64,000 bases of DNA from Escherichia coli (GTDB taxonomy: Bacteria; Pseudomonadota; Gammaproteobacteria; Enterobacterales; Enterobacteriaceae), in the NCBI RefSeq assembly GCF_024700885.2, contig NZ_CP117016.1; one strand, given 5' to 3'. Under the pieces are notes generated by a model. It was not told the DNA's origin. It saw only the letters and a program-made list of their open reading frames with translations, and did not search any database. Both the position numbers and the translations under genes were made by a program. Positions 36,538-50,895 of this stretch are shown in pieces; position 1 is the stretch's first letter, and each line of letters begins with the position of its first letter.

Positions 36538-37176
36538 ATGAAAAAGTTAACAGTGGCGGCTTTGGCAGTAACAACTCTTCTCTCTGGCAGTGCCTTTGCG
36601 CATGAAGCAGGCGAATTTTTTATGCGTGCAGGTTCTGCAACCGTACGTCCAACAGAAGGTGCTGGTGGTACGTTAGGAAGTCTGGGTGGATTCAGCGTGA
36701 CCAATAACACTCAACTGGGCCTGACGTTTACTTATATGGCGACCGACAACATTGGTGTGGAATTACTGGCAGCGACGCCGTTCCGCCATAAAATCGGCAC
36801 CAGGGCGACCGGCGATATTGCAACCGTTCATCATCTGCCGCCAACACTGATGGCGCAGTGGTATTTTGGTGATGCCAGCAGCAAATTCCGTCCTTATGTT
36901 GGGGCAGGCATCAACTACACCACCTTCTTTGATAATGGATTTAACGATCATGGCAAAGAGGCGGGGCTTTCCGATCTCAGTCTGAAAGATTCCTGGGGAG
37001 CTGCCGGGCAGGTGGGGGTTGATTATCTGATTAACCGTGACTGGTTGGTTAACATGTCAGTGTGGTACATGGATATCGATACCACGGCTAAGTACAAATC
37101 TGGTGTTACTACCGTAAAAGACTCGGTACGACTGGATCCGTGGGTGTTTATGTTCTCCGCAGGATATCGTTTTTAA
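36538..37176 (+). CDS. ompW: outer membrane protein W
   Basis: 212-aa ORF with signal peptide MKKLTVAALAVTTLLSGSAFA and beta-barrel ending in F. Confidence 0.95.
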   Translation: MKKLTVAALAVTTLLSGSAFAHEAGEFFMRAGSATVRPTEGAGGTLGSLGGFSVTNNTQLGLTFTYMATDNIGVELLAATPFRHKIGTRATGDIATVHHLPPTLMAQWYFGDASSKFRPYVGAGINYTTFFDNGFNDHGKEAGLSDLSLKDSWGAAGQVGVDYLINRDWLVNMSVWYMDIDTTAKYKSGVTTVKDSVRLDPWVFMFSAGYRF

Positions 37177-37180
37177 TTTT

Positions 37181-37239
37181 CTCTGCAAAACCTCTGCAAA
37201 ACCCCTCTGCAAAACTGGTCATCAAATGACCAGTTTTTT
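37181..37239. other. putative attL region: 3 x CTCTGCAAAAC tandem repeat plus ompW terminator hairpin overlapping the int stop codon
   Basis: Repeats at 37181-37191, 37192-37202, 37205-37215; hairpin ctggtcat/atgaccag (37215-37233) followed by TTTTTT; int stop codon lies inside the hairpin. Confidence 0.5.
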
Positions 37240-38352
37240 CCATTCCTTACCGCGTGCATCGTTATAAATATCGGTCATTTTTTGATTCGAATGGCCTAGC
37301 AAAATTTTGGTATCAACCCCCTGCTCTCTGAACAATCGCTCTGATAAAGATCTCTGCTCATGGAAAGAGGGTGGGGTGCCATTAGCACGCCAGTTGTAAT
37401 CCACAGAATCCCGGGCTTTTTTAAATGCAACGGTTAATGTTGCTGGCTTAACCATCCCGCCGCGCTTAGCTGTCCCTTTCGCGTGATGGTGGTGCAATAG
37501 CCACGGACTAAGAACGCAATCGCGGCAGGATGACACTACATCATCCAGGGTGAGATTTAATTTATCGCAACGCAGAGCCAGAGGGATGGCAATCCGGGTT
37601 CCTGTTTTTTGCTGTTCGACATGAAGATAACCATCCCGGATATCCGAAAATTGCATTTTGCAAATATCTGAAAGGCGCTGGCCTGTCATCAGTGCCAGCA
37701 GCATACCGCGCTGTAAAAAGTAACCATCCTTTTCCGCTGCGTTATAAATCATCATCCACTCATCAAAAGTCAGTCGCTGTCTTGATATCCGCACCTGCGG
37801 TTTTTTTGCCGATTCTGCAGGGTTAAAGCCTGGCGGGACATCGCCCGTTTGCTGAGCTTCCCGGAAAACATCGATCAGTACTTTCCTGAAAATTTGTCCC
37901 ATTCTGTTATGTCCTCTGGCCTTGTACTCTTCCAGTACTGATACCACATCTTTTACGGTTATGGCATCTAACGGTCTGGTGCCAAAACGTTCATCAAATA
38001 CCCTGAGAGGGGCCGCTTTCTGTTTCAGCGTGTTGAGTTTGATCTCGCCGTTTTCATATCTTTCCTGTTGAATTTTTCTGTAATTATTCAGAAAAATGGT
38101 AACGGTTGATGAACCGCCGGTATCACTAATAATTTTCTCCTGCAGACTGAGCATTTGTTCCATTTGCTGCCGGGCAAGACGGCTGTTCGCTTCTGCTGCA
38201 ATAGTTTCTGCCAGTTTCTGGTCAATACTGCCGAGACCGTGATTTTTGCCTGTTATGGGATGCCTGTAACGCCAGTAAACTTTGTTATTTCTTTTGTCAA
38301 AATACGGAGATAATCCCGGAACATCGGTTTTATATTTTCGCGGGCGCGCCAT
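37222..38352 (-). CDS. int: tyrosine-type site-specific integrase
   Basis: 376-aa ORF; the C-terminal HxxR...Y catalytic region typical of phage integrases is inferred, not aligned. Confidence 0.9.
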   Translation of the reverse strand: MARPRKYKTDVPGLSPYFDKRNNKVYWRYRHPITGKNHGLGSIDQKLAETIAAEANSRLARQQMEQMLSLQEKIISDTGGSSTVTIFLNNYRKIQQERYENGEIKLNTLKQKAAPLRVFDERFGTRPLDAITVKDVVSVLEEYKARGHNRMGQIFRKVLIDVFREAQQTGDVPPGFNPAESAKKPQVRISRQRLTFDEWMMIYNAAEKDGYFLQRGMLLALMTGQRLSDICKMQFSDIRDGYLHVEQQKTGTRIAIPLALRCDKLNLTLDDVVSSCRDCVLSPWLLHHHHAKGTAKRGGMVKPATLTVAFKKARDSVDYNWRANGTPPSFHEQRSLSERLFREQGVDTKILLGHSNQKMTDIYNDARGKEWKKLVI

Positions 38353-38578
38353 CTTCCAGTATCCTCTTCAAAGCAGGGTGATCTGTGGCGATCACCTCCG
38401 GCTTGTTTACCATTCCGACAAAGCGAGCTTGCGGATCCACTCGCCAGCGTCTTCCAACTTTTTTGGGGAGAGGAAATATCATTCCGGCTTTAGCGTATTT
38501 ACTTAACGTACTCGGAGTAGGGACCGGTTCACTGAATTCCTCTTTTGCCCACTCAGTGAGCAGAATAAGTCTTGCCAT
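38330..38578 (-). CDS. xis: excisionase
   Basis: 82-aa ORF overlapping the int start; winged-helix Xis-like sequence (MIFPLPKKVGRRWRV). Confidence 0.8.
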   Translation of the reverse strand: MARLILLTEWAKEEFSEPVPTPSTLSKYAKAGMIFPLPKKVGRRWRVDPQARFVGMVNKPEVIATDHPALKRILEDGAPAKI

Positions 38579-38642: not shown

Positions 38643-41087
38643 TTAAAAATCAGCCTGATTCGGGATCAGTTTTTGCCAGATAACTGAAACGTATTTTGCC
38701 TGGTAACGGGCGTCATCAAGTGCATTATGGCGCTCACCTTCGAATGGAATAGCCGTTCTGGCATCGAAGTCTATGGCTTTCCCCAGCTCAACGATTGTGC
38801 GTACATCTCGATCGTTGTAGTAACGCCACGGGCAGGGGATCCCCTGCCGTTCGTATGAACGGCGCAAAATCGTGTTGTCGAAGTTGGCTCCATTTCCCCA
38901 GACCTGAACAAAAAATTCACCGGAGTTTTCGTCGATAAATTCCCGCAATTGTAACAGTGCATCATCTAACGGGATTTCATCGGTCATAATGGCAGATTGC
39001 GCTTCGCGTGATTGCTTAAGCCACCATTTAATGGTGTCCCGATCAATGACCCCGCCAGCAGTTTCCAGATCGATAGTCTTACTAAATTCCGGTCCCATAT
39101 CTCCGGTTTGCGGATCGAAAAATATTGCACCTATTGAGATGATCGGGGCATCAGGATTTTTTCCCATGGTTTCAAGGTCGATCATTAGATGGTCACACGT
39201 CCTGCTGGTGGATGTGATAATGTAATGATCGTTCACCGTAATTAAGGGATCTGCCGTCTCGCCAGTTTCACTATCGCTGGCGTGATCCTGAGCGCTGCCA
39301 GCATTCTCCTTGTGTGGATGTTCAGCGCCTTCCATTTCCTTCGGATCATTTTCCTGAACTTCAACCTGATTCTCTTCATCGAATGTTTCCTGGTATGTTG
39401 CGTCGCCCATCACCGCGCCACAATCAGGGCAGTTACCGCCGCCGGTCTGACCGCAGGCGGTGCAGACTTTTTCCACTTCCTGTTGCGCCACTGGTTCAGG
39501 CTGTTTCGTTTCTGGCTCGTTTTGTTGCGTATTTGGGCTGTTTTGTTCCGCTTTCTGGTCGTTCTGTTCCGATTCTTGCTGGTTCTGGTTTACAGAATCG
39601 CGGGTTTCAATCCCCTTTACCCATTTCGGATCATTCGGGTCGCTAATCCCTGCAACAAATTCTCCGCGAGAGGCAGCCAGTAATTTGTCTGCATCGACAG
39701 GATTTTTGGGCGGAATGTTTTTCCGGGCTTCATAGAGTTCTGCCCGCAGTTTCTGATATTTCGCATCAACAGAATTTACCTGTGACTGAGCATCCAGCGG
39801 CTGCGTGTCCTGATGATGTTCAGTTGCATCCGGTTCCACTGTTTCAGCCGTTGCCTGTTCATCTGCCATTGCGCAAGATGGTTGCAGTTTTTCTTCATCA
39901 TCCTGTTTTTCTTCTTCTGTTACACGCTGCGGCATCGGGGCAGAGGAACGACCGCAGGCAATATCCACGATTTCTGGATCAGGGTTGGCATGATCAGTTT
40001 CAGTCAGTACTTTGTTAAGATATTCAGTGACGTGTGCGGGGATAACCTCGATCCCAATTGGTGCTTCTTTTACGGACGCAACCACGATGGCGCGGGAATA
40101 ATCCAGCCCGCCAGGCATGGTGATGAATTTGTCGCGGAAAACAGAAAAGGGCGGTTTATTTTCAGCGATAATTTCCTCGACACGTTTAGCGTGTGCCGGA
40201 TGAAGGTTATAAATGTCCACGTCCATTGAACGAGCCAGTACGCCAGTGGCTACGTCGCGCGCCAGTGACGTCAGATCGTGAACGAAACCTTCGCCGCGAT
40301 CGGTGAGGTTCCCGCCGCCAGCATTAGCGCCGGAAGCCGTGCGCGTGATGCGTGAAACACGATTTCCTTTCATCCACTCTTTTGTCAGCAGACCGCGATC
40401 GGTGTAGTCTGCGTCCAGGTATGCTTCGAAAAAAGCAGTCATCAGCCCCAGGCTTGAATTGCCTGGATTAGGGAAAACTCTGTCAGTATCACGCACCAGT
40501 TTGTGGAGATCGCGAATTTCCAGCGGGTCGAGCAGGCTGGTTTTGTGGGAAACAGCCAGGGCAGTAACAGCTGGTAGTTCTTCAGCTCGTGCAATGTGTA
40601 ATGCCTGTAGTTCGTTGCGTGAAACGTGCGTTACCGGTTTTTCGCTGCCGTGTTGAGCAAGCCAGCGAATGGGCAGCTCCTGACCGGAAATCGGGAGTAG
40701 CATATTCTCCTCAATCTCCGTCATGTCTTCGCCATTAACATTGGTATTGTCAGTGCTGGCTGGCTTGTCCTGCGCAGAGGATGAGGGCGCGATAAATACC
40801 ATTGTGATGCCATCTTCCCCGCCTTTTTCGTAACGGTTGCAGAATTCCGTATCAAATACGCCTTCTGGTGGAAGGTCATCAACAACGGGCAAATTGACGC
40901 GAACAGGTTTTTTAAAGTCATCTTCATCGTAGCCAGCATCGTCAATCGCAACAGCACCACGATAGATGGCAATGGATAATTTTTTCGCTTCAGCCCAGTA
41001 GAAACCGCCTTTAATACCGAGACGTTTTCTTACTTTGTCATTTTTTGCTTCGTAATACAGTGGGTAAACTTGTTTATCGGTGCTCAT
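38643..41087 (-). CDS. large phage exonuclease with C-terminal DEDD-type 3'-5' exonuclease domain
   Basis: 814-aa ORF; C-terminus has DnaQ-like motifs (MIDLETMG...WGNGANFD...HNALDDA); central CxxC...CxxC zinc ribbon; position after xis matches 'exonuclease VIII-like' genes of lambdoid prophages. Confidence 0.6.
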
Positions 41088-41186
41088 TGCTTTTTAACCT
41101 CAACTCAGATTAAAATTAATGCGAGTGATGAATAAATGTCCCAGGTTCTTCACTCAGGCCTGCACAGTGTGCAGGCTTTCTTTTTT

Positions 41187-41462
41187 TCAGATTTCACCTT
41201 TTAATTTCATTGCAATCAGAGTTGCCAGAAATTCGGCTTTTTTTTCTGCGGGCAGATTCTTTCCTATGTGCACCAGACACATTTTTTTAACACCATCGTT
41301 AAGTGTTTTAACGTTGCCTGTTGAACTGTCGATATCAACCACAGTGAATGGGGTTTCTTTATTTTCTGTTTTAATCACGTAGCCAATACGTTTTCCCTCC
41401 AGGATAACTTCGAGCACAATGCCATCAGTAGTAACAATGGTGGCTTCATAACTGTTAATCAT
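41187..41462 (-). CDS. hypothetical phage protein
   Basis: ORF 41187..41510; Met at 41462 (MINSYEATIV...) has a strong AAGGAG Shine-Dalgarno. Confidence 0.55.
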   Translation of the reverse strand: MINSYEATIVTTDGIVLEVILEGKRIGYVIKTENKETPFTVVDIDSSTGNVKTLNDGVKKMCLVHIGKNLPAEKKAEFLATLIAMKLKGEI

Positions 41463-41536
41463 GTTTTTCTCCTTAATTAAGGTTGAGCGAATCTCTGCCA
41501 TTGCTGGCATAAATTCAGTTTTGAATAGTCAGTTAA

Positions 41537-41824
41537 TTAAAGTTCGTGTGCCATCTGGTATTTTTCGGCGCATTGCTTACAGCAGTATTTATGCTCCTTA
41601 CGTGCAATAAGGGAACCGTGCATATAAATAATTTCAGCGGTAAAGGCTTTTTCAGGTTCAATTTGTTTATTACAGAGCGTATATGCACAGGGAATTAAAT
41701 CCGGGTCACCCTTTTGCTGGAGGATTTTTCTGATTCTCCACAGCCATTTTTTAATTCCGGTGTGACTGATGGTCTGCCTGGAGGCAGGCGTAAAACAATA
41801 ATCAAGCATGGGGTTCATATCCAT
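41537..41824 (-). CDS. hypothetical protein with C-terminal CxxC...CxxC zinc-ribbon-like motif
   Basis: 95-aa ORF; cysteine pairs CAYTLC and CCKQC. Confidence 0.5.
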   Translation of the reverse strand: MDMNPMLDYCFTPASRQTISHTGIKKWLWRIRKILQQKGDPDLIPCAYTLCNKQIEPEKAFTAEIIYMHGSLIARKEHKYCCKQCAEKYQMAHEL

Positions 41825-41834
41825 AGCTCCATTT

Positions 41835-42389
41835 TTATTTTAAGGAAAGCAACTGCTCTACGGTCATATTTTTAATTGCGCTCCGGTTTACAAGAGTCCA
41901 GCCTTGTTGCTCCAGATAAAACAGGAAGGTATCCAGGGTGCAGACCATTGCGCCGTCAGGAACGGTTTCAGTGAATTTGATATTGCCGTGTTCGTCGAGA
42001 CGGATAACCAGGGTGCGTCCGTCCCCGTGAATCATTTTGTCGGGAGACGGGGCGTTATTCTGGCGCAGTTCAGCTTCCATGCGGTCGAACTCAGCAATGT
42101 ATGCCTCTTTAAATGCAGCGGCTTTTTTGCCAGTGAAGCCCATCACCAGGAAAACGAAGCCGTTTTTGGTGATTTGGTACATTGGGAGTTTGCGCCCGGT
42201 TGAGTCGGTGTATTCGCTCGACACAAAATTGTGCTCAGTGAATTTTGCTGAACAGTCCAGATTGCGAATTTTATCCAACACTCGTTCGTGGCGTTTGCCA
42301 AAGAACTCGGCGATCGCAACAGACGTAGTGACAGCGCGACCATTTTCGATGGTTACGTCAGGGTGAGAAAGGGTAAGGATAGTAGCCAT
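41835..42389 (-). CDS. Rha-family phage regulatory protein
   Basis: ORF 41835..42686; the segment from the Met at 42389 (MATILTLSHPDVTIENGRAVTTSVAIAEFFGKRHERVLDKIRNL...) resembles the Rha family; the N-terminal extension in the ORF track is probably not translated. Confidence 0.65.
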   Translation of the reverse strand: MATILTLSHPDVTIENGRAVTTSVAIAEFFGKRHERVLDKIRNLDCSAKFTEHNFVSSEYTDSTGRKLPMYQITKNGFVFLVMGFTGKKAAAFKEAYIAEFDRMEAELRQNNAPSPDKMIHGDGRTLVIRLDEHGNIKFTETVPDGAMVCTLDTFLFYLEQQGWTLVNRSAIKNMTVEQLLSLK

Positions 42390-43253
42390 GATGGCAGCCT
42401 CCGCGATGAATTTGATTAACTCACCACCGAGGTTTTCCACGACCATAAGGGTGGTGAGACGTACAGGGGTGGAAATACCGGTCATCACGGAACCCGGCCA
42501 GCCTTGCGGCTGCCCTGCACGCCCCACCATAATGCGAATGTGGCTGTGCTTAACGCATAAAAAAACCGCCTGAGCGCGGTTATGCGCCGTGAATGATTTC
42601 GGGTTTCCACGCCCGGCACCCGTTTTATGAGGTGCAGGTGCACTATAATTCCACCCGTTCTGGTTTTCAATAGCTACATTCAACATTTTCTCTACCTTTC
42701 ATCACCGAAGTGAACTTTGTTGATGCGGTGCCTGGTGCCTCCAGGTGATGTTAACCAGTTAACAATTAACGCCGGATACAGAGAATCCACCCATAACACT
42801 GTTTTTGGTTTTAACTGTTCCGCGTGCGCTGAGCCGCATTCACCGCATCACAAAATTCACTTTAAAAAGGGCGGCAGAGCAGTCACGGAGTAAAACTGAT
42901 ACCGCCAAAAGTCACCAGAAAATTGATAACAGAGGGCGTTGCAGCGGAGTTGTCACTTAAGCGTATGGTCAACCTGACAACCCGGTGTCCTCAACGGGGG
43001 AAGGAATAACCCCGCCATACTTACCGCCGCGCCATTTCGCGGAGTGCCACAACCGGAAGCGCACGGTCGAACTAAATTTAACGACACCGTACAGAGAGAC
43101 CAATTTCGCCGTGCGCTTTCGCGTTATGCCCTGACTTTTCAGGGACATATCCTTTCAGTAAACTGTCAGTGCCGGATGTTCACCCGTGTCCGGCGCACGC
43201 ACTCCACCTGACCCGTGGAGAACTCCTTAATTACCAACCCTCAGGAGGGTGAA

Positions 43254-48868: not shown

Positions 48869-49507
48869 ATGAAGATGAAAAACATGTCTGAAGTGTTGAC
48901 CCAAGAAAAGCTTATTTTTGTTGCCCAGAGACTAAATGCCCTCGCGCAGTCAGGCCTGACCTATTCAAAAGACGTCTTTGACAAGGAACGCTATGAAGCC
49001 TTGCGTGAAATTGCCGCTGGACTGCTGAGTTCGCAGTTTGATATTAGCCGCAATGATTTGTTTCATGTATCGGAAACGGGTTACGCGACGCCCAAAACAG
49101 ATGTGCGTGCGTTTATCCTGCGTAATAATCGTATTCTGATGGTGAAAGAGGCTGCAGATGGATTATGGAGTCTTCCTGGCGGATGGGCAGATGTTGGAGA
49201 TACACCTTCTGAAGCTGTGCGTCGAGAGGTCGAAGAAGAAACCGGATTAAAAGTCAGAGTGACTAAACTATTGGGAGTTTGGGATCGTAATCTTCACGGC
49301 CATCCGCCTTTACCCTGGCATGTTTACAAGCTGATTTTTCTCTGTGAAGAAGTAGGTGGCAGCCTGTCAATCAGCCATGAGTCACTCGATGCTGATTTTT
49401 TTGATGTCAACGACCTGCCTGAATTGTCGCTTTCAAGAATTGTGCCTGAGCAGATTGCTGTCAGCCTGAGAGTAGCGAAAGGTGATGAAAAAACATGGTT
49501 TGATTAA
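48869..49507 (+). CDS. NUDIX hydrolase with N-terminal extension
   Basis: 212-aa ORF with canonical Nudix box GGWADVGDTPSEAVRREVEEETGL (GX5EX7REUXEEXGU). Confidence 0.8.
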   Translation: MKMKNMSEVLTQEKLIFVAQRLNALAQSGLTYSKDVFDKERYEALREIAAGLLSSQFDISRNDLFHVSETGYATPKTDVRAFILRNNRILMVKEAADGLWSLPGGWADVGDTPSEAVRREVEEETGLKVRVTKLLGVWDRNLHGHPPLPWHVYKLIFLCEEVGGSLSISHESLDADFFDVNDLPELSLSRIVPEQIAVSLRVAKGDEKTWFD

Positions 49508-49530
49508 CTTTCTTCTGCAACCATTAAGGA

Positions 49531-50175
49531 ATGGCAATGATATTCAACGCTAAGGGTTTTTTATTCGATATGGACGGTACGCTGGTTGATTCAACAGCCG
49601 TAGTGGAAAGCGTCTGGAGAGATTTTTGTGCAGAATACGGTCTTGATACTCAGGCTGTGATTGCTTACGCACACGGGCGGCAAACGATTGATACACTGAC
49701 GCATTTTATTGGTGCAGGTGAGAAAACCAATAAAATCGCGGCCTCACTCGAAGAGGTTGAAATCAACACGACAGAAGGCGTTACTGAAGTAAAAGGGGCC
49801 GCTGCACTCTTATCAAAACTGCCACCGGATAGCTGGGCACTTGTTACTTCTGCAGGCAGAATGCTTGCCGAAAACAGGATGAAAGCGGCTAATCTCCCCT
49901 TACCCATAGTAATGGTGTGTGCAGAAGATGTAATGACGGGAAAACCAAGTCCCGAGGGTTACATCAAAGCAGCTTTGGCTTTGGGCCTTGAGCCTGGTGA
50001 ATGCGTGGTATTTGAGGATGCATCTGCGGGTATAAAAGCAGGGCTGGCAAGTGGAGCTTCGGTAATAGCTGTTCAGCCTGACGCTCTGGGATCATCTGAA
50101 GCCCATGCCGTCAGCGAGCTGTCTGACATTATGGTCAAGATTTCCGGAGAACGTTTCAATATCATCTGTGGTTAA
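49531..50175 (+). CDS. HAD-superfamily phosphatase
   Basis: 214-aa ORF with motif I FDMDGTLVDS and downstream HAD motifs; AAGGA Shine-Dalgarno. Confidence 0.8.
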   Translation: MAMIFNAKGFLFDMDGTLVDSTAVVESVWRDFCAEYGLDTQAVIAYAHGRQTIDTLTHFIGAGEKTNKIAASLEEVEINTTEGVTEVKGAAALLSKLPPDSWALVTSAGRMLAENRMKAANLPLPIVMVCAEDVMTGKPSPEGYIKAALALGLEPGECVVFEDASAGIKAGLASGASVIAVQPDALGSSEAHAVSELSDIMVKISGERFNIICG

Positions 50176-50739: not shown

Positions 50740-50895
50740 ATGAAGCAGCAAAAGGCGATGCTAATCGCCCTGATCGTCATCTGTTTAACCGTCATGGTGA
50801 CGGCACTGGTAACGAGGAAAGACCTCTGCGAGGTACGAATCCGAACCGGCCAGACGGAGGTCGCTGTCTTCACAGCTTACGAACCTGAGGAGTAA
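50740..50895 (+). CDS. hok: Hok/Gef-family type I toxin
   Basis: MKQQKAMLIALIVICLTVMVTALVTRKDLCEVRIRTGQTEVAVFTAYEPEE (51 aa) with AAGGAG Shine-Dalgarno; the in-frame upstream extension from 50683 may be a mok-like leader frame. Confidence 0.85.
   Translation: MKQQKAMLIALIVICLTVMVTALVTRKDLCEVRIRTGQTEVAVFTAYEPEE

Follow-up and report, generated by a model that had tools for sequence, protein, structure and literature searches.

The closest described systems for the gene considered here are RecE, encoded by the Rac prophage of Escherichia coli K-12, and the exonuclease DexA of phage T4. In RecE the nuclease domain occupies residues 564-866, the N-terminal ~590 amino acids (aa) have been described as being of unknown function, and linear-linear recombination is boosted by the full-length protein only (PMC11611040). 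T4 DexA, for its part, is a 3'-5' DNA exonuclease (PMC12153337). With these two proteins as reference points, we analysed a 64,000-nucleotide stretch of E. coli DNA (RefSeq assembly GCF_024700885.2, contig NZ_CP117016.1; the window in what follows), in which the minus-strand open reading frame (ORF) at 38643..41087 runs from an ATG start through 814 codons and a stop codon and is listed in RefSeq as an 'exonuclease' (WP_032279702.1).

Our preferred reading, to which we attach a probability of roughly 0.7, is that this prophage protein works on its own as a tethered 3'-5' DNA exonuclease, produced when the prophage is induced, and not as a RecET-type recombinase. Judged by its sequence, it is a domain-swapped relative of Rac RecE in which a DEDDh nuclease stands in place of the PD-(D/E)XK 5'-3' nuclease. 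The architecture itself is common, has been catalogued already and carries the annotation 'exonuclease', and what is gained here is a sharper hypothesis, no discovery.

The RecE-type N-terminal module and the DEDDh nuclease domain

An original prediction made from the letters of this DNA had left the N-terminal ~600 aa without recognisable relatives. That point is overturned by BLASTP, in which aa 48-616 align with residues 40-591 of K-12 RecE at 79% identity over 569 aa; the identity exceeds 90% beyond about aa 110, and aa 114-396 are 96% identical at the amino-acid level. What stands of the claim is the matter of function, which is unknown in the literature as well. The Pfam family PF06630 (Exonuc_VIII) matches aa 53-189 (129 bits; cutoff 25). 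RecE residues 592-866, on the other hand, show no significant BLASTP alignment to the 814-aa protein, and DUF3799, the PD-(D/E)XK family, has no Pfam match in it. The same boundary appears with the NCBIfam RecE equivalog model NF007259, against which the protein scores 1171 bits (cutoff 1269) and occupies model positions 1-603 of 877 only, compared with 1830 bits and positions 1-877 for K-12 RecE. The comparison with RecE that had been suggested as a check thus returned N-terminal homology that stops at the nuclease domain, and not a full-length alignment to a RecE or Exo VIII family member. On these grounds we identify the N-terminal region as that of RecE, with homology that ends at the RecE nuclease-domain boundary.

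The remainder of the protein, aa 628-814 (38646..39206, minus strand), is a DEDDh 3'-5' exonuclease domain of the Rv2179c-like, T4 DexA-like type. PF16473 (Rv2179c-like 3'-5' exoribonuclease domain) matches aa 633-804 over model positions 2-177 of 177, with 226.3 bits against a cutoff of 27 and an E value of 2.8e-67. All five catalytic residues are intact, and their codons lie on the minus strand at 39177-39179 (D637), 39171-39173 (E639), 38877-38879 (D737), 38727-38729 (H787) and 38712-38714 (D792). The C-terminal DnaQ-like DEDD 3'-5' exonuclease that had been predicted is thereby borne out. Alignment with DexA (28% identity) and with coliphage exonucleases that are separate proteins (60% and 53%) shows each of these residues to be invariant. 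When the AlphaFold2 model served as a Foldseek query against the PDB, the best match was DexA (8kel, E 2.3e-7), followed by RNase T, REXO2 and Orn with E values around 1e-5, all four at a probability of 1.00, as befits an RNase H-like DEDD fold. By sequence, the sole solved relative is again T4 DexA (PDB 8KEL/8KEN, E 1.6e-6). Because DexA is the closest characterised relative and the context is that of a phage, DNA is the likelier substrate.

The kinship with DexA also admits a role in defence, in which the domain would act as an HREX-type nuclease that degrades the 5-hydroxymethylcytosine DNA of incoming T-even phages and so protects the lysogen. According to Kang et al. 2025 (PMC12153337), the stand-alone DexA homologue EcD of E. 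coli cleaves T4 DNA while leaving unmodified double-stranded DNA uncut, and cells are protected from T4 by EcD even when it is not induced. The domain described here is likewise a DexA homologue with every catalytic residue kept, and it retains, as Y757, an aromatic residue at the position equivalent to DexA W152. However, D169 of DexA, the proposed hydroxymethyl reader, aligns to Ala, albeit in a region where the alignment is uncertain, and D90, a residue of the DexA tetramer that is replaced by Ala in EcD, corresponds to Asp both here (D709) and in most representatives of the family. With respect to expression, the gene belongs to the repressed early-left operon and has no promoter-like site of its own, as a consensus scan found no sigma-70-like site upstream on the gene's strand. 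No defence family in PADLOC-DB v2 was matched at E 0.01 or better, although this database predates HREX, and the RecE-type N-terminal module would be left unexplained. Taken together, these considerations render a defence nuclease of the HREX type unlikely. In a separate search, a 23-mer derived from the EcD primers had no match in viral_contigs or metagenome_contigs, and the EcD gene may be synthetic or rare.

Nuclease type, recT and the proposed role

The type of nuclease attached to the module goes together with the presence or absence of recT. At DEDD-type loci (this window, EC958, P0151, P0162, P0165 and P0219) recT is absent in six of six, and the exonuclease gene runs straight into xis/int or, in P0165, into int alone. 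Among PD-(D/E)XK-type loci (K-12 Rac, P0177 and P0133), by contrast, recT comes next in three of three; with six and three loci the sample is limited, yet the two types separate without exception. In the window, neither recT nor ralR nor rcbA is found between the exonuclease gene and xis, and no annealase is annotated anywhere in the prophage. RecT, Beta and RecA all require 3' tails. Since a 3'-5' nuclease destroys such tails and no RecT is encoded, the protein is not expected to function as an annealing recombinase of the RecET type.

These data bear directly on whether the protein could nonetheless be a true RecE analogue, the nuclease of an 'Exo VIII-type recombination system' whose annealase comes from the host or from another prophage. 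The likeness to Rac recE is extensive, as the two share a genomic slot, the genes preceding it (kilR/dicB, ydaE and racC) and the N-terminal 590 aa; moreover, the prophage encodes RusA, and relatives in O157 prophages have been grouped as an Exo VIII-type recombination system (PMC2669165). Nevertheless, the catalytic domain is of opposite polarity and unrelated fold, recT is distributed as described above, and the prophage lacks an annotated annealase. The 3'-5' activity of ExoI, in addition, strongly antagonises RecET and Red, and linear-DNA assembly by either system rises about 65-70-fold once this exonuclease is deleted (PMC13048471). A RecE analogue in the functional sense seems to us quite improbable. 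The labels 'exodeoxyribonuclease VIII' and 'Exo VIII-type' applied to prophages of enterohaemorrhagic E. coli are wrong for this subtype, and recombination proficiency is not inferable from them. The earlier suggestion that the protein might combine recombination with anti-defence roles also finds no direct support, there being no annealase partner and no PADLOC match.

In terms of the wider family, a search with aa 1-616 recovered 238 clusters at E 1e-3 or better among 1.84 billion cluster representatives, and the family defined by the RecE N-terminal module is, by this sequence search, a small one. Representatives of at least 450 aa number 77, of which 18 carry a PD-(D/E)XK domain, 13 a DEDD domain and 46 neither (P0122, P0127 and P0164 are among the latter). 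A short tail of the form ...LTIAAxxGLCANPA... ends 29 of these 46, and a further six make up the YdfE_N + YdfE_C group, though low-complexity linkers may have inflated the clustering. In the latter group a Sipho_Gp157 gene follows (P0186 at L015:3501-5726). The ydfE gene of the K-12 Qin prophage is a truncated remnant. A Pfam scan of 68 of these representatives broadly bears out the survey, with PF06630 in 48, DUF3799 in 16 and the Rv2179c-like domain in 13. Two of the 68 carry a RecT domain in the same polypeptide, and these could be recE-recT fusions or merged gene calls. The DEDD architecture spans 13 separate 50%-identity clusters with domain identities down to 54%; PF06630 and PF16473 occur together in all of the best 120 database matches, and PHROG families exist for this pairing. 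From these sequences, the N-terminal module would appear to be the constant part of the family and the C-terminal effector the exchangeable one.

With respect to conservation, copies covering at least 80% of the gene are found in 1,242 of 5,426 complete E. coli genomes. The five catalytic residues are kept by 11 of the 13 DEDD-type cluster representatives; one of the others is truncated in the domain, and P0175 has lost two. In P0175 (752 aa) the position equivalent to E639 is Lys and that equivalent to D737 is Ala, and its sequence is probably that of a dead nuclease with the remainder of the protein kept. A broken copy is present in E. coli ECL27977 (L018:3001-5382, in the same ompW slot), where the homologue survives as two pseudogene pieces, one called 'RecE family exodeoxyribonuclease' and the other '3'-5' exonuclease'. 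This locus documents decay of the gene in some lineages as well as the different names that annotation pipelines give to its halves. Measured against two E. coli homologues and recE, the ratio of nonsynonymous to synonymous substitution rates (dN/dS) is 0.08-0.32 for aa 114-396, a range that also holds for aa 1-396, and these values point to purifying selection on the folded N-terminal module. The most allele-variable part, aa 1-100, yet has a dN/dS of about 0.10-0.12, the acidic stretch at aa 397-465 has a value of about 1, and dS is strongly mosaic along the gene.

Observations of this kind could also be taken to mean that the gene is a non-functional mosaic, a chimera, now decaying, of a recE gene and a stand-alone phage exonuclease gene brought together by illegitimate recombination. 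The broken copy in ECL27977, the truncated ydfE of K-12 Qin, the substitutions in P0175 and the patchiness of dS would all suit such an origin. About 1,240 complete E. coli genomes, however, have the ORF intact, the architecture recurs in the 13 separate clusters with the catalytic residues kept in all complete domains but one, and the folded parts show dN/dS values clearly below 1. Conservation largely refutes the idea of a non-functional chimera, to which we assign a minimal probability.

Returning to the tethered exonuclease that we favour, the gene would be expressed from the early-left transcript upon prophage induction or infection and would be silent in the lysogen. The enzyme would then rely on two-metal catalysis to take nucleotides off free 3'-OH ends; fragments of host DNA, the DNA of competitors and intermediates of recombination are possible targets. 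In this process the N-terminal module would serve as a constant carrier that targets, tethers or oligomerises the effector whatever the polarity of the nuclease, evolution having presumably joined interchangeable C-terminal effectors to it.

Several points weigh against such a role. Rv2179c, the namesake of PF16473, is an RNase according to the Pfam description, and, given this and the folds of RNase T, Orn and REXO2 that rank next after DexA, an RNA or oligonucleotide substrate is conceivable. The split copy in ECL27977 and the catalytic substitutions in P0175 suggest a function that is dispensable for the host, and the dN/dS figure for the DEDD part has very little divergence behind it (dS 0.03-0.05). 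With regard to recombination, the annealase might come in trans from a different prophage. The consensus promoter scan is weak evidence, and leaky or independent expression in the lysogen is possible. Our literature search yielded no account of the nuclease swap and no experimental study of a protein of such architecture; the Gifsy-1/RtcR paper (PMC9879122) deals with other genes.

The question of substrate extends to a further alternative, namely an anti-defence or RNA/oligonucleotide nuclease that would degrade an immune signal, the multicopy single-stranded DNA of a retron, or short nucleic acids (RNA or DNA) in the manner of Orn, REXO2 and Rv2179c, and would thereby let the induced phage evade systems of the host. 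PF16473 takes its name from an exoribonuclease, the Foldseek matches take in Orn, REXO2 and RNase T, and the N-terminal module pairs with variable C-terminal effectors. Placement in an early operon, as seen here, is moreover typical for phage counter-defence genes. Nonetheless, the nearest solved relative, both by sequence and by fold, is a DNA exonuclease, DexA, and the literature search turned up no phage protein of this DEDD family with an anti-defence role. An activity of this sort strikes us as very unlikely, and a DNA exonuclease remains the reading that we prefer.

A bolder proposal, which we advance tentatively and consider doubtful as it stands, is that the RecE N-terminal module may be an autonomous, conserved carrier that delivers swappable effectors to one common target in the cell, for instance the replisome, DNA ends or a host nuclease; the DEDD version would then be an anti-recombination, anti-competitor or counter-defence nuclease. 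The effectors seen on the module comprise PD-(D/E)XK domains accompanied by RecT, DEDDh domains without RecT, and short non-nuclease tails. That the module also occurs with a nuclease whose polarity is opposite and whose fold is unrelated, and with no RecT at the inspected loci, amounts to a natural experiment, from which the role of the module would be independent of 5'-3' resection or annealase loading. If the module is indeed such a carrier, the natural swaps would reveal the job of the N-terminal 590 residues of RecE, itself a workhorse of recombineering. The swaps also represent ready-made constructs for finding what the module binds.

The protein model and the prophage setting

The full-length AlphaFold2 model, built from a 97-sequence alignment, has a mean predicted local distance difference test score (pLDDT) of 77 and contains three confident blocks, one alpha/beta (aa 1-100), one mostly helical (aa 120-395) and one corresponding to the DEDD domain (aa 633-810). 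Along with the Pfam matches, these blocks uphold the multidomain architecture proposed at the outset, and the AlphaFold analysis that had been recommended accordingly shows a confident N-terminal module and DEDD domain with a low-confidence tether. Within the module, aa 1-100 (40788..41087, minus strand) form a small alpha/beta subdomain with pLDDT values of 82-97 that lies partly inside PF06630. The mostly helical conserved core follows at aa 114-396 (39900..40748, minus strand) and is marked by the motifs EW..G, RT.SG.NAGGG..TDR (aa 249-264), MD(F/V)DIY, PG(G/I)LDYSRA (aa 325-333) and LTE.DH..P. Modelled by itself, the N-terminal module reaches a mean pLDDT of 89, and a search of this model against BFVD gave no fold match at E 1e-3 or better. 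From the model, the module would seem to be without an informative structural relative.

The segments with pLDDT below 50 are aa 103-113, 397-437, 493-541, 548-552 and 557-627. An acidic linker predicted to be disordered (aa 397-438; 39774..39899, minus strand; 11 D/E versus 1 K/R; dN/dS about 1) leads into two short helices (aa 439-456 and 466-473) and a conserved segment (aa 439-492; 39612..39773, minus strand), and from about aa 465 onward the sequence is common to K-12 RecE and the YdfE-type exonuclease of EC958. Next comes a Q/E/D/N-rich tether, also predicted to be disordered (aa 493-627; 39207..39611, minus strand), in which aa 557-627 hold 18 D/E versus 2 K/R. As modelled, then, roughly 230 aa of acidic and mostly disordered sequence would connect the module to the nuclease. 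The Cys4 motif is located inside this tether at aa 542-556 (39420..39464, minus strand), where confidence in the fold is low. Both the CxxC...CxxC pattern and the acidic stretch of the original prediction are present, but its 'zinc ribbon' does not hold up as a domain: we rejected a conserved DNA-binding domain here, as the motif has low pLDDT and is confined to 6 of the 77 long representatives of the family. It is instead a lineage-specific knuckle. An internal start at M635, from which the DEDD domain might be made separately, was also considered and rejected, there being no Shine-Dalgarno sequence at a suitable distance.

Turning to the gene itself, the ORF as first predicted is sustained by its ATG start, by a GAGG ribosome-binding site read from the sequence 10 nucleotides upstream of the ATG at 41087 (41098..41101, minus strand), and by a 100% identical gene in E. 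coli MLI114 (NZ_CP117013.1); the identity to MLI114 is 100% over the whole of window positions 26643-53087, WP_032279702.1 included. The prophage is lambdoid, roughly 50 kb in length and situated beside ompW, with head, tail and lysis modules that look complete, and its nearest phage record is PPompW_EH2246, which has 98% identity across the C-terminal domain. The exonuclease gene is the final one of the early-left operon. As had been predicted, it holds the usual recombination-gene slot, being directly upstream, in transcription order, of xis (excisionase; 38330..38578, minus strand) and int (lambda-type integrase; 37222..38352, minus strand), and the prophage end abuts the host gene ompW (36538-37176). 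Immediately on its other side is a RacC-like gene (41187..41510, minus strand) that is 88% identical to K-12 RacC.

Several further features of this region deserve mention. Between the racC-like and exonuclease genes, what reads as an intrinsic terminator on the plus strand, antisense to the early-left operon, is present at 41156-41178; it consists of a G+C-rich hairpin of 10 bp and a T-run after it. Farther upstream, 41537-41824 (minus strand) encodes a Cys-rich YdaE-family protein of 95 aa, compared with 56 aa for K-12 YdaE, with a weak match to the Rtr1/RPAP2 zinc-finger family. A 283-aa protein at 41835-42686 (minus strand) has an Ash domain (PF10554) at its N-terminus as well as a Rha regulatory domain (PF09669), and a DicB remnant is located just upstream of its gene at ~42716-42799. 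Neighbouring genes for a NUDIX hydrolase and a haloacid dehalogenase (HAD) hydrolase, together with hokD, are found in the nin-like region of the prophage at 48869-50175 and 50740-50895 (coordinates converted from the MLI114 annotation), and the NUDIX, HAD and hokD genes are possible accessory or moron genes.

Comparison with known systems

Among host enzymes, ExoI (SbcB/XonA) and ExoX, the latter a member of the DEDD superfamily, have the same expected polarity as the protein described here; they are housekeeping enzymes without a RecE-type N-terminal module. T4 DexA is the best solved relative of aa 633-810 and has all DEDDh residues in common with it. DexA, however, is a stand-alone protein of 227 aa with extra loops, whereas the present domain, at 28% identity, forms the C-terminal end of a protein of 814 aa. 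Coliphages also encode stand-alone DEDD exonucleases (for example PhiR55_1 XSB43120, 190 aa) with 60% and 53% identity over the full domain, and their genes likewise occupy the early region near int or cI, but they lack the N-terminal module and the tether. EcD of the HREX system (GenBank HAK9828821.1) starts with MIDTET and ends with TIPETYD according to its primers and is consequently a different allele from this domain.

Two known proteins share the tether. The YdfE-type protein of EC958 (WP_023363203, 823 aa, from a Qin-like prophage) has aa 465-814 in common with the present protein at 86-97% identity, which takes in the tether, the Cys4 motif and the DEDD domain, and xis/int directly follow its gene as well. 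Its N-terminal 460 aa, on the other hand, are a different and distantly related module (YdfE_N and YdfE_C in newer Pfam). For RecE of the K-12 Rac prophage the situation is reversed. RecE shares the N-terminal ~590 aa, inclusive of the PF06630 region, the core, the acidic tether and the Cys4 motif, and it departs from the present protein in its own PD-(D/E)XK 5'-3' nuclease and in the downstream recT, ralR and rcbA genes, which are absent here. The catalytic domain, the curated score and the partner gene accordingly set this protein apart from the RecE/Exo VIII family on three counts, alongside the N-terminal 590 aa that it has in common with RecE.

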